Numbered from the whole stretch's first letter, positions 1-59,303 are shown. The stretch is 63,101 nucleotides of DNA, filler included, from Folioceros fuciformis (GCA_049999805.1; 6 parts of 6 records of this genome joined end to end with filler, not necessarily neighbours in it), one strand, 5' to 3'. The notes: generated from the sequence alone by a model not told the origin. Numbers and translations: made by a program.

Positions 1-2554
1 CCAAACACTCGTAGATGCTTGTATGACGGCTTCTTTCCAGACCACATCTCCTCTGGAACCTGTTCATCCTCAGCCCTATTAGGAGATCTGTTAATAAGAT
101 GCACCGCAGTAACCATTGCTTCTGCCCAAAATCCGTTTGGCAATCCAGAGTTTGACAACAAACTACGCATCCTCTCCTGGATGGTCATGTTCATCCGTTC
201 AGCCACACCATTCTGGGGAGGAGTATACGGCGCAGTCAATTCTCTCTTGATTCCCTTAGAATCACAGAATGACTGGAAAGCCTTCGAGACATACTCTCCC
301 CCATTGTTTGTCCTTAGACACTTTAGTCGGAGGCCAGACTGATTCTCCATAAGGGTGACGAATTTCTGAAACACTGTCAGAACATCATCCTTTTTCCTCA
401 AAGGATAAACCCACACCTTGCGTGAGAAGTCATCAATGAAAGTGACAAAATACGATGCACCGCCTAACGATACAATGGGCATATGTCCACAAACGTCACT
501 GTGAACCAACTCAAGAGGTTTACTTTTGTGTTTATCTCTTGCTCCATGTGGTGACTTCGTTTGTTTCCCATACAAACAGTGCTCACACACAGAGAAATCG
601 GAGAAGTCAAAAGCAGGGACGTAACCAAAACGAGATAAGATCTTCATTCTTTTTTGAGACATATGTTCTAATCGACTATGCCATAAGGAAACACTTGGCT
701 GTTCCGTTACACAAATCACATGATTCTTGACAGTGGTTACCTGAAGTGAGTACAAAGTGCCACACTTTGATCCACGAGCTAACACAAGAGAACCTTTGGA
801 GATCTTCCAAGAACTATCTCCAAACCAACAGTGGTAGCCAGCGTCATCCAACTGCCTGCGCTAATCATGCTTTTTGTCAACTTCGGAACATGCCTAACAT
901 CCTTCAATTTGAATGAAGATCCGTTGTGGAACTTCAGCTGCACATCACCAACGCTTGTAATCTCGCACGCGTAGTTATTTCCAAGCCGAACACATCCTTT
1001 CCTAGTAGCATCATAAGTGCTAAACCACTCCCTATGCGGAGTAATATGGATGATGCTCCAGAGTCAATTATCCAATTAGAGAATAAATGACTATCCACCG
1101 TTGTCAGTTGTGCAGAATGGAAGGAAGAAGAGATAAGAACATCTGCATCGTCAACAGAATTCACCTCGTTAGGCTTGGTACTTGAGCTCGCCTTGTTGTC
1201 GCTCTGCTTCTTTTAATTTTCTTTGTCCTTCTTGAACTTCTCGCAGTCCCTTCTGATATGGCCCTTCTTGTGACAATGATAACATTCAACATTGTTACGA
1301 CTACGAGACTTACTACGGGAAAGACTTTGCTCCTTGTATTTCCCCTTTGAAGTGGACCTTCCTCTCACCATGAGGCATTAGAACCTTTCGAAGGTTCCAT
1401 ATTCTTCCTGTTTACCTCCTCTGTTAATAGGCTACCTTCTACATTTACAACGGTAAGACCACTGGCAGGAGCGGAATTACTCAGAGCTGTACAAAAGGTG
1501 TCCCAGCTCTTTGGTAATGTGACCAACAGAAACATAGCTCTCACGGAATCTGGGAACGAGATACCTTGAGATGAGAGATGGCTGAAATGGTATTGAACTC
1601 ATTCAGATGATTGGACATCCTTTTCCCTTCCTTCATCTTCAAGTCCACCAGCTGTTTCAACTAGTACACCTGAGAAGCCGCACTTTGCTTCTCATATAGG
1701 TCACACAACTTCTGCCATAGCTCGTAACTTGTGGTCTTGTCTTTCACATTGAAGTAGACCGACTTCGACAATGTTAGCATGATGGTAGACCTAGCAAGCT
1801 CATCTAGATCTTGCCACTCATCCTGAGTCATGCTATCGGGTTTCACTCCTAGCAACTTTATCGGCTTCATCTGCTTCTTCTGCACTAGAACATTGTAGAT
1901 TTGTTCTTTCCAGAATGGGAAGTTAGTACCATCTAACTTCTTTATGTTAAACATGACGGTTTCTGAGGACGCCATATTTCAAAATCAATACAAATCAAGT
2001 AAAAAGGCTAGTTGGAAAACGATCAAGAATGTAATATAGATTTTGAAAGTTACCCTCGCGATTGTCCATAATTTAGGCCAACACGATGGGCCCAAGTCCG
2101 ATTCTGGTCCTCTTGGCGTTGCAAGATTAACTCGACCGTCTGCGGCTGGAATTCGGTCGCTCCCGACTGAATTCGCCCACGCCCACGTCCTAACCTATTG
2201 TGCACGACACCCACGTTCACGACTGGTGCCGGCGGCGCCCATGGCGTCCGAGCCCGCTGTGCCCATGGCGGCGCCCCCGCGGCCTGGCGCCTTCCGCCCG
2301 TGCTTGCTGTGGCGCTCCGGTGCGCCCACATTGCCTGCACCTACGGCCTGGCACCTATGGCGCCTCGCGATGCCGCTATCGCTGCCACAGCCTGAGCAAG
2401 GCACGGCTGGAGCCTGCTGCACTCCGGGCAGCAGGTGGCCTCAAATGGCCACCGGAATTTTGCCTTCACTTCGAAGCCTTCCTCATGCCTCAGTGCACCT
2501 CGTCCACAGCACCTGCCATCACCCTCTGCTCCACAGTCCTAGCTCCACAACCTC

Positions 2555-2566
2555 GCTCTGATACCA
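2555..2566 (-). promoter_or_regulatory. Primer binding site (tRNA-iMet) of copia element
   Basis: gctctgatacca on + = TGGTATCAGAGC on -, 2 nt from the LTR terminal CA. Confidence 0.92.
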
Positions 2567-7380: not shown

Positions 7381-8109
7381 GAATCGAGAACCCACAGCCC
7401 AGAACCGAGAATCGGGAATCGGTATTATGTACATACCTATATTACCTCTTGAATCTCAAACCTGATACGCCCCTGACAGGAGTCAAAGGGATGTCAATCG
7501 GGCCAGGACCCCCGTTTTGCCACCTAATCCGCGCGCTCTCATTGGCCGAAGCCCGGTTGCGCCGACCTCACCTGGGCCGACTACAACGTTGGTGCGGGGC
7601 ATATCCTCCTGGATACCTGATCCTCTACCGCGTCTAACAACGGTTCGAGTCGCGACTCAAGCGTCTCACGGCCCCCGGGCTCATCGGGTCCAGGGTGGAT
7701 TATTCTATCGCTTTCTGCCTCTCCTCGACGGGCCAGTTCGATCCGACAAGAGCGGTAGGCATCACACACTCGTTTGGGGTTTCGGGCGACAAATTTCTAG
7801 AAGAGGGCGTGACCATGGCGTCCTTGAGCAGAGGGAGCTAGAAGGCGCCGCGGAGGTGCGGGAGCGGAAAGGGAGTGGAAGGACGCTAGCCTACTTTCTC
7901 CAGGAGAGGGAGCATATTGTTCCCGCCTTAACTCGGAGAGGGTGTGGGGTTCTTCAGTTGTGAGCGTCTTCAGTGAGAGTCTGAGGTCCGAAAGGAGAGA
8001 AACTTTGTGTAGGAGACGAGGAGGAAGAGTACGTGGCGGCGGGATGGCGGCGGGGGGGCGGCTTTGCCGTCCTGGAAGGTATTGAGGTCGCAGCGGGAGC
8101 AGCACAAGG

Positions 8110-10116
8110 ATGCAACGTGACAGCGGCTCCACTGCCCGGGCCTCTTCTCTTACAGCGCAATTGCAAGACGCATGGTTGCGCTCGCAGATTCCCAAGCTCT
8201 CTAAGGCAGTGCCCCTGTCCAGCCGTAGCCCGCGGTCTGCCGGGGTGTCTTCCTCGTCTTCATCCAAGGGCTCCTGGAGCAAGCCGGTGAAGCTCGACAA
8301 TGTGGCCAAGCCGTGGGGGAGCGGGGGTTTCGGGGAGAGTTTGGTGATCTCTGAAGTCGGTTGCGTGTGGACTCCCCCGTCCACACGGTCGCTTGAGAGC
8401 TCCGGGAGCGCTCCATTTTCCGAATGGAGCTCTTCGAGCTCACATGGGGTGGGACTGGATGACGATTTATGGGACAATATGTCCCCTCGAGAGAGCTCTC
8501 TGGCCTCCAACTCCAACTCGGGGTTTGTGAAGGAGGCAGCTCAAGAGAAGAAACTGGCACGGTTTGATACCGATGACACGTCCATTTTTGCCTCCTATGT
8601 TGCCGGGATGCTGAAGGATGAGTCGCTTGCTTCCAAAAGGTGTATGGTGGAGGAGAGTTTAGCTTATCAAGCGGGGCACAACGAGCTTGCGGATGTGATC
8701 GGCGCTTTTGGAAGTCTTGATAAGTTCGGCCTTGCCGCGCGTGAGGAAAACGACGATTCTGGTGGATCTTGCTTGAAAGGAAAGGCGAGCCTTTTGCCGG
8801 GGTCTCCTGTCCCACTTGATGATGTCGAGAAATGGATCGAGAGCTTGCTCAGCGCGCCGGCTCCGCCTGTTGAGACTCTTGCTGATTTCCAAGAAAATTC
8901 GGAGAGCTCGAGCTTGCGTCAGAAGGAGGAGATGTGCGGACCTGCCCCGCAGGCTCCGGATAGGGTTCTGCCTGGCTCGCAGATTCCAGATCTGGATATC
9001 TTGCTTCTGCAGTGTGCGCAGGCGGTGTCTTCCGACGATGTGCTCGTTGCCAACCGTATCGTCGGGGAAATCCGGCACTACAGCTCTCCCTACGGGAATG
9101 GCGTCCAGAGGCTGGCGCACTACTTCACCGAGGGACTGGTGGCTCGGCTCTCTGGGAGTGGGGCAGACTTGTACTCCGCCTCTCGCAGCCGTCCCACAGC
9201 CACCGCCATGGTGCGAGCGTACCACATGTACGAGACCAAGTGCCCCTACGTGTGTCTTGCACACAGGTTCTCGAACCAGGCTTTGTTGGATGCCTTCGAG
9301 GGAGCCTCTCGGGTCCATGTCGTGGATTACGGCGTGATGTATGGTTTCCAGTGGCCTTCGTTCATCAAAGAGCTCGCCGACCGCCCTGGAGGGCCTCCAC
9401 GTCTGCGCTTGACTGGAGTGGATTTCCCGCAGCCAGGGTTCAAGCCGGCCGAGCGCCTGGAGGATGTGGGCAAACGGCTGGAAGATTGGGCCAAGCTCTT
9501 CGGCGTGCCATTCGAGTTCCAGGCGGTGGCCAGCAAGTGGGAGGCTGTGCATCCTGCGGCATTGGGATTGCGGCATGACGAGGTGCTAGCTGTGAATTGC
9601 ATCTACCGGCTGCGCCACCTGCTTGATGAGAGCGTCATGCCCTCCAGTCCCCGAAAGCTCGTGCTGAACCGCATTCGGAGCATGAATCCCAAGATCTTTG
9701 TCACAGGCATAGTTAGCGGGTGTTACAATGTGCCGTTCTTCATGTCCCGGTTTCGGGAGTGCCTGCACCATTACTCGTATGTGTTCGACTCTCTGGACTC
9801 TATTGTCCCCAGAGACTGTGACGTGAGGGCTCTTTTGGAGAGGGAGATTCTCGGTCGAGAGATTCTCAACGTTGTGGCATGCGAAGGTACGGAGCGAGTG
9901 GAGAGGCCCGAGCCCTACTACCAGTGGCATCGCAGGCTGAAGAACGCTGGTTTCAGTCAGCTCCCGCTCTCTAAATCTGCACTTTCTACATCACTGGAGA
10001 CCTTGCGGCAGCATCACAAGGATTTCGGCGTTGCGGATGATGATGGCTGGTTGCTTCTGGGCTGGAAGAACCAGGTAGCTAAAGGTCTGGCTGCATGGCA
10101 GCCAGCTGAAGCATGA
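8110..10116 (+). CDS. GRAS transcription factor, LISCL/SCL14-like subfamily, intronless
   Basis: 668-aa ORF with LLLQCAQAV, QRLAHYF, VHVVDYG..GFQWP (VHIID), PQPGFKPAERL, NVVACEGTERVERPE and terminal GWK..AAW (SAW) motifs. Confidence 0.95.
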   Translation: MQRDSGSTARASSLTAQLQDAWLRSQIPKLSKAVPLSSRSPRSAGVSSSSSSKGSWSKPVKLDNVAKPWGSGGFGESLVISEVGCVWTPPSTRSLESSGSAPFSEWSSSSSHGVGLDDDLWDNMSPRESSLASNSNSGFVKEAAQEKKLARFDTDDTSIFASYVAGMLKDESLASKRCMVEESLAYQAGHNELADVIGAFGSLDKFGLAAREENDDSGGSCLKGKASLLPGSPVPLDDVEKWIESLLSAPAPPVETLADFQENSESSSLRQKEEMCGPAPQAPDRVLPGSQIPDLDILLLQCAQAVSSDDVLVANRIVGEIRHYSSPYGNGVQRLAHYFTEGLVARLSGSGADLYSASRSRPTATAMVRAYHMYETKCPYVCLAHRFSNQALLDAFEGASRVHVVDYGVMYGFQWPSFIKELADRPGGPPRLRLTGVDFPQPGFKPAERLEDVGKRLEDWAKLFGVPFEFQAVASKWEAVHPAALGLRHDEVLAVNCIYRLRHLLDESVMPSSPRKLVLNRIRSMNPKIFVTGIVSGCYNVPFFMSRFRECLHHYSYVFDSLDSIVPRDCDVRALLEREILGREILNVVACEGTERVERPEPYYQWHRRLKNAGFSQLPLSKSALSTSLETLRQHHKDFGVADDDGWLLLGWKNQVAKGLAAWQPAEA

Positions 10117-11108: not shown

Positions 11109-11996
11109 TCAAGACAGCATCCCTTGTCTCTGGGACTCCAGAGCTTCCAGCACACTGTCCACCCAGCCGTCCAGGCCAGGGTGTTGAGGATAGAAAACTT
11201 TCTGCAAACCTGCTTTCTTGGCTGCAACAGCAGAAGTACTCCCTATGCAAGCAGCGGCTCCGCTCCATTCTCTGGTACTAGCCACTAGGTCCATCCAGGC
11301 TTTCACAGCAGTGGGAGAGGCAAAGGTTGCCACGGGTGCTGAGGCAGCCAGATCCACGGCTGCATCATCTAAGCCTGTAGCAGACTCGGTGGAGTAAGTG
11401 TTGAGGCGGGTGACGCTGAATCCGCGCTGAGACAATCCGTTCTCAAGGTCGACTCCCGCCTTGCAAGATGCCGGATACAGCACCCTGGAACAGCCGTTCA
11501 TCACTTCAGGGAGTTCTGCGGCCAGAACTTTGGCGGTCGCTACCGACGGTGTGAACTCCACTTGACCGGACTCGCCCTCGAACACTTGGCCTGTGCCTGC
11601 CCCGACAACAGCAATGCGCACCTTCAGGGAGCCGGCAGCTCTCCAGGAGTCGAGAAAAACCATTGCGGCCTCTGGAGAGGTCACCACAATCCAATCAAAC
11701 ACCTGCTCCTGAAGAACCTGCGCTAGCATTGGCTGGTCCGGCCCTTCCCGGTGCTCAATCAGGGGAAGCTCGATGCACCCTATACCGAAGGCACTTAGGG
11801 CTTTGATGAGCTTCTCATTCTTTCCCCGCTCTCGTGTCACCACAACCTTGGAGCCCTGGAAATCCCCGCCACCGGCCATCATGTAGACTACATTGCCACG
11901 GCAGTTGGACGCTACAGGTCTCAAATCTGCTCTGAGTTTCGATGTCTGCTGCCCGTACCAACCTGTGGCAGTGCACCCGGAACCTAGCGTCGCCAT
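11109..11996 (-). CDS. HEMD: Uroporphyrinogen-III synthase, plastid-targeted, intronless
   Basis: VVVTRERGKNEKL, FDWIVVTSPEAA, IAVVGAGT, VLYPASCKA, RLNTYST, ASPTAVKAW, AACIGSTSA motifs after a transit-peptide-like N-terminus. Confidence 0.93.
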   Translation of the reverse strand: MATLGSGCTATGWYGQQTSKLRADLRPVASNCRGNVVYMMAGGGDFQGSKVVVTRERGKNEKLIKALSAFGIGCIELPLIEHREGPDQPMLAQVLQEQVFDWIVVTSPEAAMVFLDSWRAAGSLKVRIAVVGAGTGQVFEGESGQVEFTPSVATAKVLAAELPEVMNGCSRVLYPASCKAGVDLENGLSQRGFSVTRLNTYSTESATGLDDAAVDLAASAPVATFASPTAVKAWMDLVASTREWSGAAACIGSTSAVAAKKAGLQKVFYPQHPGLDGWVDSVLEALESQRQGMLS

Positions 11997-12147
11997 TGGA
12001 ACTTCGTGAGTTGTAGATGAAAGTTTGCAAAGAGGATTTGGATGACGCTAGCCAACAACGCGGGTGCTGACATACGCAGGTGGCATCACGGTACGCGGGC
12101 AAATGCATAGGCTCTCTACAAAATGTGCAGTGTCGACAACTAGTTAC

Positions 12148-14490: not shown

Positions 14491-14590
14491 NNNNNNNNNN
14501 NNNNNNNNNNNNNNNNNNNNNNNNNNNNNNNNNNTTAATTAATTAANNNNNNNNNNNNNNNNNNNNNNNNNNNNNNNNNNNNNNNNNNNN
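14491..14590. other. Assembly gap with artificial six-frame-stop linker
   Basis: N44-TTAATTAATTAA-N44. Confidence 0.97.
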
Positions 14591-24863: not shown

Positions 24864-26378
24864 CTACTCGAAAACAACTGAAGAGGGTCCCTTCTTGGAA
24901 CCTCCGTTGCCCTCATTCTCCTCATCGTCATCTCGGAATCGCTTGTGCGAGTTCCTCTTCCCTTGGTACCCATTCTCTTGCCGATCATCCTTGCCCTGAA
25001 AACCACCTCTGAATCCACCCCGCCCACCTCTGTAACCGGAATGGTGGCCACCCCTGCCTCCACGCCCTCTGTGATCCCCTCTGCCCGCGCAATTCCGCCT
25101 TCTAAGTTGCCCTTCCCTGAGCTTCTTCCAATACTCCTTCTCCGCGTCTCCATCAACAGACTCCACCGTCATCAAGAAACCCTTCAGTGCTAGGCCACCC
25201 GCCTCTGCTATAATGGCCGCTGTCCTAGCTTCTTGCGCTTCTTCGGGGCTCTCGAACCTCACAAAACCAGAAGTCGCGCCCCTTGTAAAATCGACGAATC
25301 TTACAACGCCAAACTGCTCCATGCAAGCCTTGATGTCTTCGCGTATCAAGCCGTTCTCGCCGATGCTTTTATCTCCCTCCTCCGACGCACTTGCTGCCAG
25401 TGCACCTTCCGCTGCAGTGTCGGAGGGAACTCCCTCCGGCTTACTTGCAGCGGTACCATCCGCTGTACTGTCGGAAGCGACACCTTCCGCCTCAATTTCA
25501 GAAGGAGCAGCGACCTCCGCTGCAGCATCAGACCCCACGTCCTCCGCCTTGCTGGCTCCTGAAGAGCTTTTGACTGCATCTTCCTCCGCCGGAACCCCTG
25601 CTGCATTTCTATTACTACTACCAGTCTCCTGTTTCTCCGGATTTTCCTTGCCTAACTCGGACAAAAAGAAGGCGACGATGAGACCCTGAGGATAAAATAA
25701 CTCCCCTTCAGCCTCCGCTCGCTCCCGCTCCAACTTGGCCTCCTGCTCCAACCTCGCATCCCGCTCTGCCGACAACTTCTTCATCCGCTCATCGAACGCC
25801 ACCTTCGGCTCCACCTCCAGCTCCACACCAATTTCCTCATATAAAGGCGCCGACCCGATCAACTTCTTCGCCTCCTCCTCCGTCGCGAACTCGATCAACG
25901 CCGAGCCACAAAACACCTTCGCAATGGGGCTCCGCGGCAACCTAACACTATTCACCTTCCCGAACGCAGCAAAAAAGGATTCCATCATCTCCAAGGTAGT
26001 GTCATAGGGCAAGGGCCCCGCAGCCACGGTCCTTGCATCAACCTCCGCCTGCACAACCTCCGGCCTCTCCAAATTCTCCAGCCTTCCCACTCTCATTCCA
26101 TCCTCCGACAAACGCAACAAGGCCGACTTCCTCAAAACCTGGGCAACTCCCAGTGTGATGTCCGCAGTCACAGCCTCCAGTCCATGCTCCTTCAGACCTA
26201 AATGACTCCTCATTCTGGAGAAAGAGCACACCACCTGGAGACTCACCAGCCCATCGTCGCTCGTCTCAATGGACTTCAGCAAAAACTTGTCTCGGGGAAG
26301 ATTGCTGTCACTGAAGTAGAACTCCACCTGCCTCAGGATCTTGGCTGCCGTGTCCTCGCTGAAGTCGAGAGGAGCCAT
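24864..26378 (-). CDS. LA1: Genuine La protein (La motif, RRM1, RRM2), intronless
   Basis: KILRQVEFYFSDSNLPRDKFL La motif, RRM (VNSVRLPR, GSALIEF), RRM2 (REDIK, VRFVDFTRGATSGFVRF, EKEYW), RGG-rich tail; first ATG at 26378 (MAPLDF). Confidence 0.93.
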   Translation of the reverse strand: MAPLDFSEDTAAKILRQVEFYFSDSNLPRDKFLLKSIETSDDGLVSLQVVCSFSRMRSHLGLKEHGLEAVTADITLGVAQVLRKSALLRLSEDGMRVGRLENLERPEVVQAEVDARTVAAGPLPYDTTLEMMESFFAAFGKVNSVRLPRSPIAKVFCGSALIEFATEEEAKKLIGSAPLYEEIGVELEVEPKVAFDERMKKLSAERDARLEQEAKLERERAEAEGELFYPQGLIVAFFLSELGKENPEKQETGSSNRNAAGVPAEEDAVKSSSGASKAEDVGSDAAAEVAAPSEIEAEGVASDSTADGTAASKPEGVPSDTAAEGALAASASEEGDKSIGENGLIREDIKACMEQFGVVRFVDFTRGATSGFVRFESPEEAQEARTAAIIAEAGGLALKGFLMTVESVDGDAEKEYWKKLREGQLRRRNCAGRGDHRGRGGRGGHHSGYRGGRGGFRGGFQGKDDRQENGYQGKRNSHKRFRDDDEENEGNGGSKKGPSSVVFE

Positions 26379-26716
26379 CCCCGCACCACAGAAATTCCAG
26401 AATCCTTTCACGCTCTACTCCTCCGAAATTGATATGATCCAGTCCTGAATTCCGCTCAGCACCCGAGCACTGTGACCTGGGTACAACAGCAGCTCAGAGC
26501 AACCCGAGCCCTAGCAGCCTGACCTAACCCGGTGACCGCTCAACGTTCACCGGAATAAACGGTAATCGGTGGCAAGGAAGCGTACATCAAATTGCGTGCA
26601 TACACACATTTTTAGAAGCTTCCAAGCAGCACGAGATATCTGCCTACAGTATTTTGATTGTCTTCCGATTTTTACGATGAAGCGCCCCGCCTATTCTTGG
26701 CGGCCTTAGCGGGGCC

Positions 26717-28374
26717 ATGACATTTGAGCGAGGCAATTTCGAGGAGAATGCGATCATGCGAGAGCGCCTGCAGATCCCAAATCGAGACGTATGCAATTCT
26801 GCGCAGAGCGGGATTCGAATGATCAGCGATGGAGCTGGCCATGAGGATGGGAAGGCCAGTAGCATGGTAGTTGGGAGTGGAGCAAGCTCGGGGCTCCATC
26901 AGCGGGGGCATGACACGAAATTGTGCTTTCCTCGGCCGGTTGCCGAATATGGAGATGAAATTGCCGCCCTGGATGAGAAGGAAAGTAGGAGGATGAAGAG
27001 AAACAAGGCCATCAAGACGTCCAAGCATTTGTTTGCGGGCGCGATGTCGGCTATAGTTTCCAGGTTTGCATTCCGAGGCTCAAATTCTGAGGTGGGAAGA
27101 GGGAAGTTGTGCTGTTTCAGGGATGGGATTGCCTTGTTAGGTTTCGGGTTTAGATCGGGGGTGTGTGTATGAGTTGATTCTGTTCGGGTTGCGGTGATAA
27201 CTTTGGCTGGCGTTGTTTTTTGGTTGCCTGATCATGCAGTGCTGCTTTGCAGAACTGTTGTTGCACCGTTAGAGCGTCTTAAGCTCGAGTACATTGTTCG
27301 TGGGGCAACAAAGAATGTGCTAGTTACTGTTCAAGACATTTTGTGTGATGAGGGCTTGAGAGGGTTTTGGAAAGGCAATGTCGTCAATCTGATTCGAACT
27401 GCACCCTTCAAATCAGTGAATTTTTTCGCTTACGACACTTATCGTAAGCAATGGCTGCTGCTGACGGGCAAACAGGAGGTGTCCAATTTTGAGAAGCTTT
27501 GTGCAGGGGCTGCGGCAGGGATAACGGCTACTCTCATCTGTTTCCCCATGGATACTGTATGTTTTTTTCTTATTTTGTATATTCTCTGGTTGTGTGCTTC
27601 GAATTTGGTTCTTGTGTATTTCAAGCATGGATTGATTTGTGCGGTGATTTGTGACAGAAGTGTAAGAACCATTTTGTGTAAGAGGCTGCTAAAATGCTGC
27701 TTGCAGATCCGAACGAGAATGGTGGCTCCAGGAGGGGAAAAATTGGGCGGTATAATTGGATGTGCCTCTCAGATGATCCGTACCGAGGGCTTTACTTCTC
27801 TGTATAAGGGTCTATTGCCAGCTGTTGTCAGTATGGCTCCTTCTGGTGCTGTATTCTATGGAGTATACGATATCTTGAAGACAAACTATTTGAAGTCACC
27901 CAAGGGACAGAAGGACACCAAGGAACGACTTGAGCGGGAGAAGCAGCTCCGTCTGTCCAATCCAGGAGGGTCAGACCCGATGAGGACTTTGGAGATCGGA
28001 CCACTGAGAACCCTGTTGTTTGGAGCTATAGCTGGGGCATGTGCTGAGACAGCAACCTACCCTTTTGAAGTTGTGCGACGCCAGTTGCAAATGCAGGAGG
28101 CCGCTACAAAGCTTAGCATCATAGGGACGACCCGTGCGATTGTGGAAAGAGGGGGAGTCGGTGCTCTGTATGCTGGTCTCCTGCCCAGCACGTTTCAGGT
28201 TGGTTCTGTCCTTCTGGCTTTCCTGTGGACATTGTCGTGCTCGTGGAGCCCAGCCATCGTGTGTTGTGTGGACTGAGCGGTTAGCTGTACTGGGAACTCT
28301 TGCAGGTTCTTCCATCTGCTGCTCTGAGCTACTTCGTATACGAGACTATGAAGATCGTTCTACAGGTGGAGTGA
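26717..28374 (+). CDS. Mitochondrial carrier family protein (Brittle1-like/BTL3-type); exons 26717-27063, 27253-27556, 27707-28198, 28306-28374
   Basis: Three PxD/ExxK/R repeats (APLERLK, FPMDTIR, YPFEVVR), KHLFAGAMSAIVSR, GFWKGN; GT-AG introns in frame. Confidence 0.92.
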
Positions 28375-29865: not shown

Positions 29866-29965
29866 NNNNNNNNNNNNNNNNNNNNNNNNNNNNNNNNNNN
29901 NNNNNNNNNTTAATTAATTAANNNNNNNNNNNNNNNNNNNNNNNNNNNNNNNNNNNNNNNNNNNN
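29866..29965. other. Assembly gap linker
   Basis: N44-TTAATTAATTAA-N44. Confidence 0.97.
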
Positions 29966-30330
29966 CATCTGCCACATAATCCCTATGCAGAAAGATATAA
30001 TAGGACCTTGCACGAAAGGACGAGAGCAGCTCTTACTTTGGCTGGACTCACACAAGGTTATTGGGCGGAAGCCGTTGACTCTATCAATTATGTATGCAAC
30101 AAGCTACCTTTGAAACCATTTTATGACACCACACCTTTTGAAAAGGTGGACTGGTCACAAGCCGCATATCGGCCACCTTAGGACTTTTGGTGCCATAGCT
30201 TATGCTTTCATACCAGAAGATAAACGCAAGAAGATGGACAACAAGCTACTAAGATGTATTCATTGGGTATTCAGACACTATTAAAGGATACAAGCTTTAT
30301 AATCCATCTACTCGGGAGCTATCTATAGCT
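29966..30330 (+). mobile_element. Copia integrase C-terminal fragment
   Basis: NRTLHERTRAALTLAGLTQGYWAEAV, GHLRTFGAIAYAFIPEDKRKKMDNK, GYSDTIKGYKLY. Confidence 0.88.
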
Positions 30331-32437
30331 CTTATTCCCTCACTGTTAGCTGTATCCCTGCCTTAGTAGGGAAGTATGGGTGAGAAGGAGAAGGAGTGTG
30401 GCGCTGGAGATGGAGGAGGTGAAGGGGTGTGGAGAGTGGGAAACTGGTTGAGCCCAAGCTATGGTGAGGGAGACGAATCCGCCACTGCGCGGAGTGGAAG
30501 GGGGATCCCTCCTTCCCATATTTCTTGAGCTGTGGGTTGTGGTGAGTGAGCGTGAGGTGTGGTTGATTTGCGAGACCTGGTTGTCCGGGGGTGGCGCCTG
30601 TATGCATGAAAAGTACTATGTAAGTCCCGACCTACGAGACTTGGAGTTTTGGGAAGAACCCCGCGGTGAACCCGTGGCATCGAAGGCATCGAAACATAGT
30701 CAATTAGGCTATCGGGTGGGCCCCACCACGATCGTGGGCTACAACGACCTACAGGGTTTGTGTGGGCCTCGCGGTGTCCCCGGACACAACATTTTCCTCC
30801 ACACCAGCATAACCCCCTTCCTATTCATGGTCTAACCCCCTGCCTATTCATGGTCCAAGGAACATTGCCCGGCTCTCAGATCCCAGCACATGCTCTCAGA
30901 TCCACATATCGCTTCCCCTGCACCTGCAGCTGCTCCGAGTCCACCACATGCTCTAGGAACTTGGCTCCAACAAATACGCCCTTCCGAACGATACAGAGCA
31001 GGTCCCTTTTTCCCAGAAAGGCTTAGTGGAGTTCATGTTTCTCCAAGCGGCAACAAGACCGAGTGCACCCCTCTATTTGGGAGGCCGTCAACAGAGCGCC
31101 AGTAAATCTTCCGATGGTGAGTCAGCCATGGAAATTCCAGTATCTGTCCCAAGCCTCCGTACTCAAGAATCCATTTCGACAGCTCCGGTTTGACTTTCAG
31201 CACCCACGGGCGTGACCCATGCTTCCATTGGTTCATCCTTTCCCTGTACACAGGCGCACTCCCGGGGGTGGCATAGAACTCCCCATCCCAGGCCACCAGC
31301 CTCTGGCTTGCACCCGTTGTCAGGCAGCTGGGATTCCCAAAAACCATATGTTGTTGTCCACATCGTACCTGAAGTCGGCCGCACCATCCAACATGTAGAG
31401 CTGGTCCTGAAGCAAAGAAAGGTTCCCCAATTGCGTCATCTCACCCTCCTCCCACATGGCCTGCAGGGCTGCCCAACCCCTACTGACGGGATGCAACACC
31501 TTGCTACTGCTTGGGCCCTGCAGCCCGCCAGCCAACCCGAGCCAACTAGTAAGCCCACATCGGCTGCTGCCTAGGCCCTGCAAACCGCAAGCCAACCCGA
31601 GCCGACTGGTTGGCCTGCCCCGCCTGCTGATTGGCCCCGGCCCAGCCTGCCTGCCTATGGCCTTACTGGCCAGCCTGCCAACCAGCCCACCTAACAGCCG
31701 CTGCCTAGCCAGCTTGCCCGGCCATCTGCCACGACTGGCCCGCCTGACTAGATCGATCCCTCAATCCAGCCAGCCTCCGGTTTGTCCTGAGCTGCCTGGC
31801 CTCTAGCTGGTTGGGTTCTGATAGCCACACCACCTAGCTTGGCGACCCGTCCATGCCCGCCTCTCCCGAATCCGCCACTGGCCAGGTCCGCCAGCTAGAG
31901 CCTGGGCGATGCTGGCCCCAGATCCAACCCACCGCCCCGGATCCTGCCAGTCTGCTAATCCAGCCAGGCTACCTGGGGACCGGTTGCGCACCTATCTGCT
32001 AGCTGCCTAGCCACCGATCCTCCCCAACCTGGCTCCCAGGATCCCGCCATCAACTGCTCCTGTCCTGTCTGGCCAGATCCGGTTAGCCAATAGGATCCTC
32101 CTGCAGCTAGTTGGCTAAGCTGCCGACCAAGATCCCCCACTTGCGGCTAGCCCCTGTCTGGCTCCCGCCTGTGCAACCGCCTGCCTACCAGTTGCCAGCC
32201 AACTTGCCGAGCTGCTTGCTCCCATCGAACCCCATTTCCAAATTCAAGGACTCCTATGCTCTGCCTGCTTTGCCAAAAGGTTGATGAACATGAGGCATTC
32301 AGAAGCTTGCCTCCGAAGGCCCAAGGTTCAGACCCTAACCATCCTACCCCGCCCAATTCCCTAATTATTTCCCCATAAACTTCAACTAAAAATAAAAATA
32401 AAAAATCTCTATCATTTTTTTAGGGAATCTATCTACT

Positions 32438-35400
32438 ATGTGGACTCCACATAGCCACTTAAGAGTTTTTGGAGTAGCAGCTTATGCCTACATACCTGTA
32501 GATAAGAGTCAAAGGATGGATAATAAGGTGTCTCAACATGTTTTTGTGGGGTATTCCGACACTATAAAAGGATACAAGCTATACAGTCCATCCACCAAGT
32601 GGCTCATTATAGCTAGAAGAGTAAGTTTCAACGAAACCTTTATTCTTCAGTCCCATCAACATGTTGTGACTGGGCATTCGCCATTGGATCCACCATTTAT
32701 ACAAGGACACACACCTACGTCAGATGACGAAATTCCAAAGTCAACAATGGACTTCCATGAATGTACTTATGATCCTGAAGCAATAGAACCTGTACATGCA
32801 TTAGATCAGAATGATTAGGATGAAGATTATGATGCCTTAGGCCTGTATGGAGATATTGATAATCAGGACCTTGAACAGGAACCAAACCCAGAGTTAGATC
32901 CTTCTCAGGATCAGGATGCAGTACAATTTACACCTGATCATAATGAACTGAATGATGAGCGCACCTACCTAAACCTTAATGACGAATTAGACTTCCTACC
33001 TCTTATGAATGAGGAAGCTGTAGTCCACGTACCTAGTCAATTTATCCCAAGACGGTCAGCACGGACACATTGTGCATGATCAAATTGGATAGACCCACCT
33101 TATGTTATGGGTGATAGCTTAGTATCTAGACAGAATCCATCTAATGATCTTCGCGTTTCCTTAGCACAAATGGCATAACACATGGCACTAGTTGTGATGG
33201 AGCCACCAAGTACACCCACAACATTTAAAGAAGCTCTCACCTCACCACATAAGGAAGACTGGCATAAGGCTATTGACAGTGAATACAAATCATTGATAGA
33301 TAATAAGACGTGGAAACTACTAAAGCTACCAGCATGACAAAGAACTACTACCTCAAAATGGGTGTTTAAGCTCAAGCTTAACCCCAATGGGTCTGTAGCC
33401 AGATATAAGGCCCGCCTCGTTCCACAAGGCTACACGCAAGTATAGGGACTCAACTATAATGAAACTTTTAGTCCCGTTGTCAAGCCAACCTCTATGCATA
33501 TTCTACTATGCTATGCCATACAACACAATCTATTAGTCCATCCGATGGATGTAAAAACAGCATTTCTAAACGGAGCTCTCGATGAAACTATCTATATGGA
33601 GCAACCAGAGGGATACGTAAAGGATCCTACCTTGGTATGAGAACTTCTCAAGTTGATATATGGCTTAAAACAGTCAGCCCGTATATGGAATGCGAGGGTG
33701 GATAAAAAGCTTAGAGCTCTCGGTTTCATTCCACTTACAGCTAAATTTAGCATGTATATCCTGCAAACAGACACAGAGCTTTGCATCATCGTACTCTACA
33801 TGGATGATAACTTTATATTTGCTAATAACTTTCAAGTGCTTACCAAAGTTAAAAGGCTCCTTAGTGAAGAAAATGAGACATGACTGATGTTGGACCCCTG
33901 CAATTCGCACTTGGGATTCAATTTCTTTTCAGCAGTGTCCACAATTCTGCCACCTTACATCAAGAGCACTTTATCAGGCAAATACTTACAAAATTCAAGG
34001 TGGAGGACATAAACCTTGTCACCACCCTTGTTGTGGTAGGAGAAAAATTGTCACTTCAGAACTGTCCAACCATAGATGCTAAGAAACACGAGATGTTGCA
34101 AATTCCTTCCAGAGAAGTCATTGGAAGTTTGCTGTACTTGGCAAGTTGGACTCGTCCTGACATCTCACAGGCCACATGGATAGTGTCAAGGTACTTGTTC
34201 AATCTAGGTAAGAAGCACTGGATTGCGGTCAAAAGGATACTCAGATATTTAAAGGGAATAAGGCACCTATGTCTTAAGTACACAGGCCACATATTTTCAC
34301 CTAACCTATTATTCGGATGCTGATTGGGCAAGAGACATAAATGGCAAAAAATCCATTGCTACCTACTCTACGGTGCTATGTGTATCAACAATTAGTTGGC
34401 AAAGTAAAAAGCTATCCACTATCAACCTCTCCTCAATAGAGGCTAAGTATAGTGCCTTGTCTCTAGCAACACGTGAAATCAGCTGGATCAAACAGTTTCT
34501 GACTGAAATCCACGTTCCACAAACAGAGGTGACAATTCTGCGATGTGATAACCAATCCGCTATCGCTTTATCTGCTAATCCAGTCCTTCACGCAAGATCT
34601 AAACACATTAAGATGCAATGCCACTACATAAGGCAGGCAATCGACCAGAAGCTGATACAACTTTAATATGTCCCAACAGCAAATAATGTTGCAAATATAC
34701 TAACAAAAGGGCTTTCCAAACCTCTTCACAAGCATCACAGGGACTCTTTGGGTCTTAAGCTAAATACAAGCATAGCCCAAAGCCATGTAATCCACACAAG
34801 TTAAGAGGACAATGAAAAATTCTGACCGAAGCGTGAGGAGGACAACTTACGAGTAAGCATTTGCCCTGCTTAGGATCATATATCACAGTTTCTAAATGAC
34901 CTGTAACAGCACAAGAACACACATCACGAGCTCTGGATGAAGTGCAACGAATATCAAATAAGAGATACACTGATATTTCTTTTAGTTAACCTTTTCATCT
35001 CTAGCAAAGTTTTCTTCATGATCATCAGGCAAGAGCATTACAAATGTTTTGGAGACCAGGAGCAGATTCTCCTATGACAAGGACGAGCTTTGAAGGCTCT
35101 GAAGCTGTTGACTTTTCTTTCTAGGTGCTCTTCCCCTTTCACATACGAGTTACATGTGCACAGCTTCTTGCCGCACGCGACAACTCCTCCACAATGGGCG
35201 TGTGACGCGCTACTCCCTGGCAGGTTGACATTAGGAGCAGCTAACAAGATTGCGAGTGCAATCTCTTGAGCATGATCCAGAAACCACAAAAAGCCAGACA
35301 CCGTCATGATTGACACGGAGGAGATGGTTCCCGACGACGAAGCGGTGAAGACTGACCACTTTAGCGTTTTGGCAGCCAAGGTTAGGGTTTTAGATTTAAC

Positions 35401-35717: not shown

Positions 35718-35817
35718 NNNNNNNNNNNNNNNNNNNNNNNNNNNNNNNNNNNNNNNNNNNNTTAATTAATTAANNNNNNNNNNNNNNNNNNNNNNNNNNN
35801 NNNNNNNNNNNNNNNNN
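35718..35817. other. Assembly gap linker
   Basis: N44-TTAATTAATTAA-N44. Confidence 0.97.
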
Positions 35818-35868: not shown

Positions 35869-36513
35869 CTAAGCTAGAAGTGCCGCTTGTGTTTGAGCAG
35901 CAGTGTGTGAGGTCATGAAATGAGACCAAGATTCAGGAAGGGAGAGCATGAGCCTCATCACTATTTCATCATCAGTCATACTAACTTTGGAAGCTCCTTC
36001 CAATCTTAAGGCCAGAATCCTGAAGGTATTCACGTGCTTCTCTACTGAATCACCTTCCCTCATTCTCAAGTTTTGGAAGTTCCTCAAAGCAATCATTGCA
36101 CTGACCATATTATGACTTGCATACAATTCCTTGAGGCGTGTCCAGATATCAGATGAAGTCTTCCCCCCTACAGTCTGACTCAACATTTCAGATGTTAGGC
36201 CACTATGAATGAGGTATTTGGCTGCGCTGTCTTTAGCTAACCAATATGCTTTGCATGTAGTCCCCACGCTAGGAAAAGATATATTTCCAGTTGCATATTT
36301 CAGGAGTCCTCTCATTTCAAGGACGCCTTCCATCCGGATAAGCCAGAAATCAAAGTTAGTACCATTAAATCTATCCTTGTCTTTAAAAGTTTGTGTGCTA
36401 AGGATAGATGATGATGAAACTGTATCACCCATATTGGATTTGGATGATGTAAATATAGGCTCTGCTTTGTTTATGTCAAAATTTATTTCCTGATCACTGT
36501 TTGATTCGACCAT
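35869..36513 (-). CDS. Copia gag (N-terminal part, ends at in-frame stop near gap)
   Basis: DRFNGTNFDFWLIRM, IWTRLKELY, FQNLRMREGDSVEKHVNTF, LMLSLPESW (UBN2/gag motifs). Confidence 0.9.
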   Translation of the reverse strand: MVESNSDQEINFDINKAEPIFTSSKSNMGDTVSSSSILSTQTFKDKDRFNGTNFDFWLIRMEGVLEMRGLLKYATGNISFPSVGTTCKAYWLAKDSAAKYLIHSGLTSEMLSQTVGGKTSSDIWTRLKELYASHNMVSAMIALRNFQNLRMREGDSVEKHVNTFRILALRLEGASKVSMTDDEIVMRLMLSLPESWSHFMTSHTAAQTQAALLA

Positions 36514-36523
36514 ACACTTCTAC

Positions 36524-37228
36524 TCACAGTGCATGTTTTTGCCACTGCAGAATCTGCCCCCACACACCTCTTCTAATTGCAGGCTTGGAGTTTCTCATAT
36601 CAACTTTGTTATAAATATTTGTGGAGCACGAGGAACATATATTGGGTAAGGCAAACCTTCGTACATGTTCTGCCTTACACGCACGCTTACAAGCTATCTT
36701 TCTGAAGGCTGAATCATTACTTTGCTTGGATTTCAGCAGCACGACAAGCTTGCTGTCCAAGTAAGAAATTTGTTCCTTCAAATATTGTAAGTCCACGCTT
36801 GTTGTAGATAAATGTCCTCGTATTTCATTGCAGCATCTGCCTAAAATCTTATTGCTTGTCTTAAGACGTTGAATTATTGTATTAACATCTATATGTGTGA
36901 CAGGCTCAGCAAAAGAAGGATCATAAAAATTATGTCCTACAATGCCTTTCTGTACACATCCTCTTGATGAATTTAATAATCCTTGTGAAGGAAGACCAAA
37001 CAACAGATTCGACTGTATTGGGTAAAGTGCTGCAATTAAAACATTGAAAGCTATTTGTAAATCAGTAATAAAAAAAGATTGTGACTGATTAATTTGGCTC
37101 CACTGTAGAATTCTTTGATGGAGTTGGGATGCAACTGACAATCCATCAAAAATTCTAGCTTTATTATAAATAGGGATCCTTTCTATAGGACATCGATCCC
37201 TACGCTGGTGGTCATAATTACTGGCCAT
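36524..37228 (-). CDS. Unknown 234-aa extra ORF upstream of gag, Cys-rich C-terminus
   Basis: Uninterrupted 705-nt ORF in AT-rich DNA, start context gcagccATGg, stop 10 nt before gag ATG; no family recognised. Confidence 0.65.
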   Translation of the reverse strand: MASNYDHQRRDRCPIERIPIYNKARIFDGLSVASQLHQRILQWSQINQSQSFFITDLQIAFNVLIAALYPIQSNLLFGLPSQGLLNSSRGCVQKGIVGHNFYDPSFAEPVTHIDVNTIIQRLKTSNKILGRCCNEIRGHLSTTSVDLQYLKEQISYLDSKLVVLLKSKQSNDSAFRKIACKRACKAEHVRRFALPNICSSCSTNIYNKVDMRNSKPAIRRGVWGQILQWQKHAL

Positions 37229-37836
37229 GGCTGCCAGATAATTTCTTGAATTTTAAAATGCAGAAACTTTGCATTGTTTGTTTTCTTTATTTGATATTTG
37301 ACATATAATTGTGCCAGCCAAGCAGCTACTCTTGTGGGCCTTCATTTAATTAATCTAAGTATCAATTCAGATGGAAGTGCATTAGATTATCTACCTGATT
37401 ATGTAGAATCTATATGCATTCATCAAATTAATCAAGAATGAAAGCATTCTTTTAAAGATTATGTTTCTTGAAATTCTATTAATTTCAAAACAAGAAACCA
37501 AACAAATATAAAATTGCACACATTTTTTTATGCACAATTTTGTTGTGCATCCATCTAAATACAATCAACAACAAACATGGCTCTGATATCGTGACAAATT
37601 ATGGAGGTAAATGCAAAGGAATTATATTAAAACATTGAGATTTACATTACTGGTTCAAGAAAAAAGACTTAGTTTACAAAACATGAAACTCAACTTAAAC
37701 TAACTGAAACGTTGTAGTTGTTCACTTATGACGTGACTCTTATGCAACATCACTTAAATATTCTAAACATAACTCTACATATCTTATCTTAAAAGCACAA
37801 ACCCTTTAATCATTATCAGCACTAGTTATCATTACA

Positions 37837-39929
37837 AATAGTCCCATCTCTCAACAACAGTGATTGGCGGGGGTGGAGTGGCGAAAGGGTCGGGCTTTGA
37901 AAGGGTGCTGTGGACGATCTTCCAAACGCCTTGGCCAATAAGGATCGACTTCATCCGAATGTGCCACATAGGGTAGTGTTGACCATTGAATCGGTCTTTC
38001 TCTCTAATGTGGTCGGTGAAGACGGGAATTGAGCCGGTGGAGGAAGTACTAGCCATGGCAGCTGGAGCGTTAATTGAAAGCGAGTTGAAGTGCTGTATAA
38101 GCTGGTCCACAACCTCCCTGTAGGTTTTTGGTCATAAACTCATGTGCTTAGGACCACTCAGTGTTTGACTAGTCTGGAATTTGCAAGCTATCCACCTCCA
38201 ATTTTGCTATATGACGAAGGCGAAAGACTAGGTCCACCAAACACTAAGTTGTGTGCTTGAGGTGATCCCACAGAAGAAAAGTTTGATCCGCAAAAGCCAA
38301 AGATTCCAGTTGTAGGATAGGCGAAGCTGGCTCAATCTTCACTTGCGCATATTCTGGTGGCGGTTCAAAACTCCTAAGGTCCAAGCGCTGGTGTGAAACG
38401 GCGCCAGGGACAACCGGTTCAGAATTGGTGTCCGAAAAAACTGCGTTCACACCGGTTGGGGCGGCCCAAATTGATTCAACGCCAAAATAGCAACTTAAGT
38501 TGCAGTTTCGCGGGCGGGGCAGCATTTCGCTTGCGAAACGACAACTTAAGTTGTTGTTTTGGCCCGGGCACCGCTTCGCGGAAGCGTTGGGCTCCGCCTG
38601 CCCGTAGTGCGCTGCTACGTCACGGCACTCCACCTCCAGCATCTCCAGCAAGTGCGATCGGCTGCGGGCGCTGGATCAGCGAGCCAGGGCGCCTCCTCCT
38701 GCTAAGCCCTATGTTTGAATTTGGTGGATTTTAAGTCAGGATCAGCTGAGAATTGCTTCTCATCTTGCAATCTTCCACTCCCCCTTAGATCAGCCTCAAT
38801 TCTCGACGTAGTTTGCTCGATTCTGGCATCATTTGGCAGAAGTTGAGTAATAGGGGGCAGATCCTCTGTGGGAATACCTTCTCCCCCTACACGCCTGTAG
38901 ATTGGGGGAAAATTGAGCCAATTTAGAGATACTTAGATCAACCGAGCTCCAATCCCCCTCTTCCCCAATCAGGCTCCAATCAACAATTTCTCGTGAGTTG
39001 AGGAGCCTAGATCTTGGCAGAGGAAGGACGCCCTGTAGGCGCGACCAGCCTTGGTTTGAAATGGCTGTGAATGGGGCATCAGCGCCTCCGATCGGTGTGC
39101 CCAAAGATCCTCCTTCTTCTTCTTCTTCTCCATGAGAGTGTATATGATAAAACCGTGCCTACTTGTGTCCACGAGAGGGGCTTGTAAGGGCCAATGCACT
39201 GGACTTCATCAAAACTCCACAATTAAGAGCCCAACCCACGGATCAATATTTGGATGGGGAGCCTTACATAGGGTTCTCATGGTTCAATACAGTTTTTTTT
39301 TTGTTTTTTTGTTCTTTTAAAACGAGATACACATCTAGAGCTCTTGCAGCTCTTTTAAAACAAGATACACATCTAGAGCTCTTGCAGGCCGTCGTGCTCT
39401 CTAGAAAATCTTCTTTCTAGATGTATAGTATTCTCAACCACCTAAGACTCATATCTTGAATCCTTAAAAACCCTCAATGATCTTGTGAAGTGAATTTTCT
39501 TCCATATTTTCTAATGATTTCTAAGAACTAGTCTAGGACCATTGGAGCCCAGCATACTCTACAGAAACACTACAAATCTAATATGATATGCTATCTAATT
39601 TGCTCTTTATCAACAGAGACAAAGAAGAGATAGCAAGCAAGTCCATGGCGGATCATGGCTCTGATACCATGTGAAAATCCTAGCAGTAGGATTGCATCTA
39701 ATCTAGCATGATTAGGATTGCATCTAGTTCAGCATGAGTAAGACGCCATGCTCAGAAAGATATTTCGTGTTAATCTACAAAAGGTGTGTACAAAGTGTGT
39801 CTTAAATAGTGTCATTGGGTGTCTCTTCCGAAGGGGCACACCCGTTCGTAATTATTAAATACTATTAATTACGGTCTACGATAACTAGCTGGTCAGCAGG
39901 GTTATGGGCATATTATCCATTCCGTAACA
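37837..39929 (-). mobile_element. Second copia element: LTR 39670-39929, PBS 39658-39669, ~1.5-kb leader, gag start truncated by nested insertion
   Basis: Perfect TGGTATCAGAGC PBS; TG...CA LTR; gag DRFNGQHYPMWHIRMKSILIGQGVW (37837-38110) cut at the neighbouring LTR edge. Confidence 0.88.
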
Positions 39930-40560: not shown

Positions 40561-40609
40561 TAATGATGTGGATTATCCATTCCGTAAGATATGAAGACAA
40601 GAGCCCTAC

Positions 40610-42047: not shown

Positions 42048-42211
42048 GATCCTACCAGACACTATACAACCGGCAACACGCTGCCCGCGATCCTACCAGA
42101 CACTGTACAGCCGGCAACACGCTGCCTGCAATCCTACCAGACATTGTACAGCCGGCAACACGCGGCTTGCGATCCTACTAGACGTTGCACAGCCGGCAAC
42201 ACACTGCAGGT
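42048..42211. repeat. Tandem repeat, 41-bp unit x4
   Basis: gatcctaccagacactgtacagccggcaacacgctgcc(c/t)gc units starting at 42048, 42089, 42130, 42171. Confidence 0.9.
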
Positions 42212-42226
42212 CCTAAACCAAGTAGG

Positions 42227-42326
42227 NNNNNNNNNNNNNNNNNNNNNNNNNNNNNNNNNNNNNNNNNNNNTTAATTAATTAANNNNNNNNNNNNNNNNNN
42301 NNNNNNNNNNNNNNNNNNNNNNNNNN
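42227..42326. other. Assembly gap linker
   Basis: N44-TTAATTAATTAA-N44. Confidence 0.97.
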
Positions 42327-59203: not shown

Positions 59204-59303
59204 NNNNNNNNNNNNNNNNNNNNNNNNNNNNNNNNNNNNNNNNNNNNTTAATTAATTAANNNNNNNNNNNNNNNNNNNNNNNNNNNNNNNNNNNNNNNNN
59301 NNN
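59204..59303. other. Assembly gap linker
   Basis: N44-TTAATTAATTAA-N44. Confidence 0.97.

Follow-up and report, generated by a model that had tools for sequence, protein, structure and literature searches.

Introduction

Extra open reading frames (eORFs or aORFs) are reported from most LTR-retrotransposon lineages (PMC12786077), and about 4000 have been counted in plant elements, almost all of them without an assigned function. One survey (Neumann 2019, PMC6317226) defines four classes for both superfamilies (5'F, 5'R, 3'F and 3'R). With a minimum length of 250 codons, it counted such ORFs in 582 copia and 3372 gypsy elements, in 45 and 314 similarity groups, respectively, with a CDD match for only 21.4%. 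The only extra ORF presented in its main text as the hallmark of a copia lineage is the eORF-3'F of SIRE, found in 74% of elements (PMC6317226).

Plant aORFs are described as lying mostly 3' of pol, and those resident in an element are present in most copies and usually lack a homologue (PMC7264820). In bean, 63 of 65 copia families are reported to carry the polyprotein ORF only and the other two to have 3' env-like ORFs; the same source places ORF0 of rice Retrosat2 between the 5' LTR and gag (PMC4093653). The 5' aORFs of sunflower Tekay group-2 elements are reported as conserved in 500 of 523 elements, with domain-less, fast-evolving, lineage-specific and partly helical products of predicted nuclear localisation, for which the authors speculate on a modulation of RNA silencing (PMC11728184). 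Conserved 5' extra ORFs have thus far been described mainly in gypsy lineages. A preliminary description of the locus studied here had placed extra 5' ORFs mainly in Ogre/Tat elements, to which chromovirus/Tekay gypsy elements are to be added on the account given in PMC11728184. In the literature searched, no main text was found to describe a copia family in which a sense ORF between the PBS and gag is conserved.

Here we analyse an extra ORF (aORF) at the 5' end of a copia element, found in a 63,101-nt stretch of DNA (the whole stretch that was analysed, hereafter the window). With a rough probability of 0.45, we tentatively regard it as an element-borne sense extra ORF of the eORF-5'F (5'aORF) class, located in the leader of a Ty1/copia family that is AT-rich, in a plant with GC-rich genes. 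Its unusual features would mainly be a place on the 5' side of a copia gag and a 10-nt stop-to-start junction; otherwise it would be one more putative orphan eORF. If a copia family has a conserved 5' cistron, the pattern extends to the other superfamily and, if conserved, the 234-aa product would be a compact candidate for packaging or counter-silencing roles; the 10-nt spacing also raises the question of how gag is translated.

Results

Composition of the window

The window consists of six contigs joined by five 100-nt linkers. These linkers are six-frame-stop spacers, any feature that apparently spans one is an assembly artefact, and contigs that adjoin in the window are not necessarily neighbours in the genome.

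14491-14590, 29866-29965, 35718-35817, 42227-42326 and 59204-59303, no strand: assembly linkers, N44-TTAATTAATTAA-N44
8086-10116 (plus strand), 11109-12047 (minus strand), 24864-26414 (minus strand) and 27173-28276 (plus strand): host genes, namely GRAS, uroporphyrinogen-III synthase, La/RRM/xRRM and mitochondrial-carrier repeats

The GRAS-family frame is without introns (Pfam, E 4.4e-117), and its domain, together with the other host genes, indicates that the source of the window is a plant. We checked the reading frames of four host genes; those for GRAS, La/RRM and HemD have a GC content of 0.56-0.58 and a GC3 of 0.57-0.66, and that for the mitochondrial carrier has values of 0.48 and 0.49. 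The composition of the GC-rich host genes contrasts sharply with that of the copia element that carries the extra ORF (element C, below).

Several repeats were observed elsewhere in the window. A 60-nt direct repeat pair (77% identity) lies at 31503-31622, and a copia integrase C-terminal segment is present in one contig as two 76%-identical copies (30251-30330 and 32535-32614); these suggest that further copia fragments, nested or duplicated, are present. At a contig end adjoining a linker (42049-42207), there are tandem repeats, about 77-82 nt long and 86% identical. Sampled words were present at fractions of 0.69 and 0.50 in two DNA runs (one sample, one study) and next to absent from a third run of the same sample, and no RNA run was listed with them.

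An extra ORF between a PBS-like site and gag of an AT-rich copia element

The extra ORF is located on the contig at 35818-42226 (6409 bp), the minus strand of which is a pile of nested copia 5' ends. On this strand we observed, in order, an LTR-like block, a PBS-like site, a leader, the 234-codon ORF, a 10-nt spacer and the gag of element C. The preliminary description had reported the same arrangement (LTR, PBS, AT-rich leader, 705-nt ORF starting at gccATGg, 10 nt and gag ATG), which is confirmed by the sequence and by the Pfam match of gag.

37592..37836, minus strand: inferred 5' LTR of element C, 245 bp, TG...CA, 28% GC, followed by the PBS-like site
37579..37591, minus strand: PBS-like site, tRNA-iMet type, agreeing with the canonical 12-mer at 10 of 12 positions, 2 nt past the ...CA end
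37229..37578, minus strand: AT-rich leader, 350 nt, 28% GC, 11 upstream ATGs
36524..37228, minus strand: extra ORF (aORF), 234 aa plus stop, 705 nt, TGA at 36524-36526
36514..36523, minus strand: spacer, 10 nt, with a gag-frame TAG inside it at 36520-36522 (three-frame read)
35869..36513, minus strand: gag of element C, 214 aa, the ORF ending within the Pfam domain

The 245-bp block would be the 5' LTR of element C, to judge from its ends and the site that follows; it is a single copy, blastn finding no second one in the window. Its proposed edge is a jump in GC content from about 0.29 to 0.52 at about 37840, which is the sole sharp break, since composition shifts gradually through the leader, the extra ORF and gag C. 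As in other copia-type elements, a site complementary at most positions to the tRNA-iMet 3' end directly follows the inferred 5' LTR. We take the consensus of this PBS to be a 12-mer that is complete (12/12) at the other two copia 5' ends in the window, those of elements B and D, and from which element C deviates at 2 of 12 positions. The 9-mer TATCAGAGC, which lies within the PBS-like site of element C at 37580-37588, occurs three times in the window against 0.56 expected, all three times on the minus strand, and each of the three copia gag starts in the window sits downstream of one occurrence.

The gag of element C is of the copia type, matching Retrotran_gag_2 with an E value of 4.5e-27 (95 bits, cut-off 27; profile positions 1-147 of 172) and, weakly, DUF4219 (E 0.014). 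Reading past the gag C stop with X did not lengthen the Pfam match, alignment with the gag of element D gave no extension past this stop, and on these comparisons gag C appears cut short relative to the domain model. Because gag C ends inside the Pfam domain, this copy looks dead, and we consider that it probably is. In a copy that is probably dead, an intact 705-nt ORF is uninformative on selection after insertion; its intactness shows solely that, at some stage of its past, the frame was maintained free of stops.

The contig ends 50 nt past the gag C stop, where the linker at 35718-35817 cuts element C, and it holds only the 5' ~2 kb of the element, without pol, 3' LTR or target-site duplication. 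Copia integrase and RT fragments do lie past this linker; as they are on the plus strand of another contig, opposite to element C, they are not its continuation.

Two further copia 5' ends in the window

Element C was inserted within the gag of an older copia, element B; about 72 codons into this gag, at the C LTR boundary, the frame is interrupted by the AT-rich newcomer. A third copia, element D, was identified near the start of the window.

37842..38056, minus strand: N-terminal gag fragment of element B (DUF4219, E 2e-10), the older copia that is host to the insertion of element C
38057-39929, minus strand: 5' end of element B, with an inferred LTR at ~39929-39670, a full 12-base tRNA-iMet PBS at 39669-39657 and gag ATG at 38056
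3-2563, minus strand: element D, third copia, with a PBS at ~2566-2555, a 576-nt GC-rich leader and gag ATG at 1975

The leader of element B is unusually long (~1.6 kb, 47% GC). It contains a sense ORF of 132 codons (38244-38642) as well as an inverted repeat of 83-85 nt around 38481-38563, and a 16-nt string from the start of the element B LTR recurs near 40570-40588. The gag of element D is broken by a stop and frame changes, and its gag_pre-integrs and rve matches (3-860) run off the window.

The open frame exceeds chance and carries a weak coding signal

From stop to stop, the frame of aORF comprises 242 codons (36524-37252). This length was reached in none of 2000 shuffles of the 1083-nt region (longest frame 73 codons on average, 154 at most); calculated analytically, a run of 242 codons without a stop has a probability of 2.8e-8. 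The region has a GC content of 35-38%. We conclude that the open frame is real and beyond chance. At 234 codons from the ATG, or 242 from stop to stop, it is shorter than the 250 codons used in Neumann 2019, a threshold that is a survey cut-off and not a biological criterion.

The aORF lies in sense orientation between the 5' LTR/PBS and gag, outside the polyprotein frame, which is the position of an eORF-5'F. This class, also called 5'aORF, is reportedly credited to Steinbauerova 2011 as well. The aORF TGA is separated from the gag ATG (36513) by 10 nt, and the two ORFs are in different frames. The start context of aORF, GCAGCCATGG (GCCATGG), is strong and near-identical to that of gag B (GCTGCCATGG, also strong), and that of gag C (AAGTGTATGG) is weaker than either. 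We also observed that aORF (37228), gag B (38056) and gag D (1975) all begin with Met-Ala-Ser and that gag C (36513) begins differently; aORF may hold the place of an ancestral first start, or the shared beginning may merely reflect a plant start-site preference.

Coding statistics gave a weaker signal than that of genes in the window. Three-base periodicity in aORF has a z of 1.72, which 130 of 2000 shuffles equal or exceed, compared with 4.78 for gag C, 3.38 for a copia integrase, 5.95-10.29 for three host-gene segments and 0.93-0.95 for the non-coding leader and LTR. Of the six frames, the open one scores best, but faintly, both for G at first codon positions and on a codon score trained on copia. 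With a GC content of 0.376 and a GC3 of 0.311, against 0.409 and 0.395 in gag C, the composition of aORF is native to the element and unlike that of the host genes in the window.

The weak periodicity would fit a meaningless frame, either a chance or relic opening in a leader that is AT-rich and expanded, or an unrelated gene next to an LTR-like block, and so would the low recognition score, the poor fold model and the lack of relatives reported below. Against it, the shuffles and the analytic probability exclude chance at this locus, and no tandem repeats account for the scarcity of stops: TRF found none in aORF, its two small arrays (37515-37549 and 37684-37710) both lying outside. On the opposite strand, the longest frame in this stretch does not exceed 51 codons, and the strong start context and the 10-nt fit to gag would have to be further coincidences. 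We regard a meaningless frame as quite improbable.

The extra ORF does not resemble gag

Another possibility is that aORF is a disrupted N-terminal gag extension or a diverged gag duplicate, its frame being continuous with gag in intact members of the family. Such cases have a precedent, in that Neumann et al. state that they dropped putative eORFs that are separate in some elements and part of the polyprotein in others (PMC6317226), and the Met-Ala-Ser start and strong context of aORF are those of gag in the other two copias of the window. At the junction, however, each of the two frames has its own stop (the aORF TGA and the gag-frame TAG), so no single indel joins aORF and gag, and gag C has its own 48-residue N-terminus ahead of the DUF4219 motif. 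When aligned with gag B, C or D, aORF (whole or its first 70 residues) scored at the shuffle mean, with 699 to 1863 of 2000 shuffles scoring at least as high. The gag-gag controls were clearly separated from their shuffles (B versus C, 94 against 22.4 ± 4.0, 0/2000; B versus D, 3/2000; D versus C, 1/2000), and aORF has no gag-family Pfam match at E <=1. Resemblance of the aORF N-terminus to a DUF4219 gag start, noticed by eye, was rejected by the same alignments. A match to a known gag extension, an outcome that the preliminary description had named as counting against its reading, was thus not found, given the shuffle-level alignments and separate frames. Judged by these comparisons, a simple frameshifted gag extension is unlikely, and we hold an origin of aORF from gag, as extension or duplicate, to be highly improbable.

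Features of the predicted protein

The aORF would encode a protein of 234 aa (~26.7 kDa, pI 9.8) that is predicted to be mostly helical and whose C-terminal 64 residues have a pI of 10.4. The two peptide motifs quoted in the preliminary description, a putative coiled-coil and a Cys/His cluster, are both present in it. In the register that fits best, residues 140-172 have hydrophobic side chains at 7 of their 10 a/d heptad positions. AlphaFold2, run without an alignment, gave a helix at 145-165 in a model that was poor overall (mean pLDDT 37.8, no residue above 70). The cluster is formed by Cys 180, 184, 198 and 201 and His 188, with the spacing C-x3-C-x3-H-x9-C-x2-C. Retroelement CCHC zinc knuckles have the spacing C-x2-C-x4-H-x4-C, which differs from that of aORF, and Pfam zf-CCHC did not match aORF at E <=1. 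The hydrophobic maximum, at residues 53-71, is borderline (Kyte-Doolittle 19-residue mean of 1.6).

In the ESM Atlas, the best score of aORF was 0.78, to KxDL clusters; this is under a level that shuffled proteins also attain, below what is meaningful, and the KxDL lead was dropped. The language-model recognition score of aORF was 1894, which is likewise too low to be meaningful, falling short of the value of 2300 that 91 of 100 known-family proteins reach. Zinc binding, nucleic-acid binding or anti-silencing activity of the protein, as read from its residues, is pure conjecture.

Homology searches and the origin of the extra ORF

Searches of large collections returned no relative of aORF. In Pfam it matched no family, the best being COG6_N (E 0.1; 13.2 bits, with 27.4 as the cut-off), and a full HMMER pass gave 0 matches at E <=0.001 among 1.84 billion cluster representatives. 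A word-indexed protein search gave 113 candidates, none at E <=0.01, and the two matches among PDB sequences (E 0.81-0.86) were not significant. Neither the 57 pattern matches in metagenome contigs nor the two in viral contigs were confirmed, and tblastn and blastn found no second copy of aORF within the window. On these searches, the aORF protein would be an orphan without a detectable relative.

We also ran the word-indexed search with gag C, which is Pfam-positive, and obtained 93 candidates, none at E <=1e-5. As gag C drew a blank, the genome's own ORFs are apparently absent from this collection, and the empty searches therefore bear on distant relatives and not on sister copies. One gag metagenome locus, from 48 pattern matches, was rejected as a 21-residue match only, on an unrelated GC-rich contig.

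These results bear on several sources from which the element could have obtained the frame. Similarity to a cellular gene, as in Bs1-like transduced host genes, was not seen for aORF in the searched collections; the match to a captured host gene that the preliminary description had set against its own reading was likewise not found in Pfam, the 1.84 billion representatives or PDB. No terminal inverted or direct repeats (TIR/TSD-like) were found around aORF, so a nested class-II element is not indicated as its source. Together, the element-like composition and the lack of flanking repeats argue against a recent host-gene capture or a nested transposon, and we consider host-gene capture to be unlikely.

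A broader alternative is an acquisition specific to this copy, in which a foreign coding segment arrived by transduction, by template switching or from an AT-rich selfish element or virus, and is preserved, roleless, in a dead copy. Transduced aORFs typically occur in one or a few copies, according to PMC7264820, and element C has no sister copy in the window. Such an origin would also suit the defects of this copy (gag stopping at profile position 147 of 172, PBS with 10 of 12 positions), the weak coding periodicity, which fits a decaying or foreign frame, and the long upstream ORF and 11 upstream ATGs, which look incompatible with efficient gag translation. On the other side, no donor was found among the 1.84 billion representatives, Pfam, PDB sequences and contig scans, and the composition of aORF is continuous with element C and unlike the window's host genes. 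The ORF is also complete, with a strong start, and ends 10 nt ahead of gag; it comes without a poly(A) remnant, filler resembling a UTR or repeats on its flanks, which is not the usual legacy of random capture. We consider an acquisition of this kind somewhat doubtful, though a serious contender.

Taken together, the evidence favours an element-borne ORF over a copy-specific acquisition, a gag extension and a meaningless frame being less likely than both. The sense orientation, the tight fit from leader to gag, the element-like composition and the lack of relatives favour the element-borne ORF over capture, and the published 5' ORFs of Tekay and Retrosat2 and the 5'F class of eORFs offer precedents for it; weighing against it are the weak periodicity, the faint codon-position signal, the recognition score of 1894, the defective copy, the 11 upstream ATGs and, in the main texts consulted, the restriction of lineage-typical copia eORFs to the 3' ORF of SIRE. 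The preliminary description had proposed an element-encoded accessory protein. A non-chance frame that is co-oriented with the element, element-like in composition and orphan favours the first part of this proposal, and the accessory function is pure inference.

Discussion

The case described here consists of one copy, truncated and defective, and its protein is an orphan; we present it as a lead and not as a discovery. If aORF is borne by the element, it may be the first cistron of an LTR-driven genomic RNA. Its product would be basic (pI 9.8) and largely helical, with a short segment of leucine heptads (residues 145-165) and a C-terminal third that is strongly basic (pI 10.4) and bears the C-x3-C-x3-H-x9-C-x2-C cluster. 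By analogy with what has been speculated for other 5' aORFs, our best guess for its role would be an oligomerising accessory factor associated with nucleic acid or RNA.

The translation of gag behind such a cistron can be envisaged in several ways. Under the established scanning model, far less gag would be expected to be translated behind an upstream ORF of 234 codons. The leader holds 11 ATGs, against 7.0 expected from its composition, each opening just 5-30 codons; with gag in addition lying behind aORF, simple scanning is disfavoured. We would guess that ribosomes terminating at the aORF stop reinitiate past the 10-nt spacer to make gag, or that gag comes from an alternative RNA in which aORF is missing or bypassed; a third option is that gag is simply unexpressed from this arrangement. 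A scan with splice-site consensus patterns gave a single acceptor-like site, 30 nt ahead of the gag ATG, and no strong donor; this is too faint a signal to support splicing.

In its fullest form, our proposal would be that a copia family not yet catalogued has aORF as its conserved first cistron, encoding a fast-evolving, basic Cys/His-cluster protein that oligomerises and acts on element RNA or host silencing, with gag made by reinitiation 10 nt on. We judge this full version to be unlikely. If it were true, aORF would be a copia counterpart of the 5' accessory genes of Tekay and Ogre, and its transcript a natural bicistronic LTR-retrotransposon RNA of plants.

Comparison with known extra ORFs

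Gene-transducing elements such as maize Bs1 offer one comparison, in that they carry foreign sense coding sequence within an LTR element and are described as occurring in one or a few copies (PMC7264820). Unlike Bs1, whose host-gene fragments are recognisable, aORF has no donor in the searched collections and its composition is not host-like.

Within the plant copia superfamily, the SIRE (Sirevirus) eORF-3'F or env-like ORF is, in the accounts of PMC6317226 and PMC4093653, the one well-documented lineage-typical extra ORF, and it is highly heterogeneous. Like aORF, it is a copia extra ORF without a conserved domain (PMC6317226, PMC4093653). Unlike aORF, which is 5' of gag and has a hydrophobic maximum that is only borderline, it is located on the 3' side of pol and is frequently longer (381-793 aa in the legumes reported).

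As in Ogre ORF1, Athila ORF-1 and the Retand eORFs, aORF is an extra ORF outside the polyprotein, theirs being described as characteristic of their lineages (PMC6317226). In contrast to aORF, for which Pfam gave no match at E <=1 to any of these domains, the extra ORFs of this OTA gypsy clade are reported often to encode PMD (PF10536), Transposase_28 (PF04195) or Athila ORF-1 (PF03078).

The 5' aORFs of the chromovirus/Tekay group have drawn published speculation on a role in binding RNA or in modulating silencing. The 5' aORFs of Tekay-type elements are those of gypsy elements and, as described, are ~400 aa long, proline-rich and largely disordered, carry a predicted NLS and have been shown to be conserved, unlike aORF, which Pfam and the 1.84 billion representatives do not link to them in sequence or by domain. 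Like aORF, the 5' aORFs of chromovirus/Tekay gypsy elements (sunflower Tekay 13-2, rice Retrosat-2 ORF0, RIRE3/RIRE8) are in sense orientation between the 5' LTR/PBS and gag, and those of Tekay type share with it, as far as described, predicted helices, no known domain and no sequence similarity across families (PMC11728184, PMC4093653).
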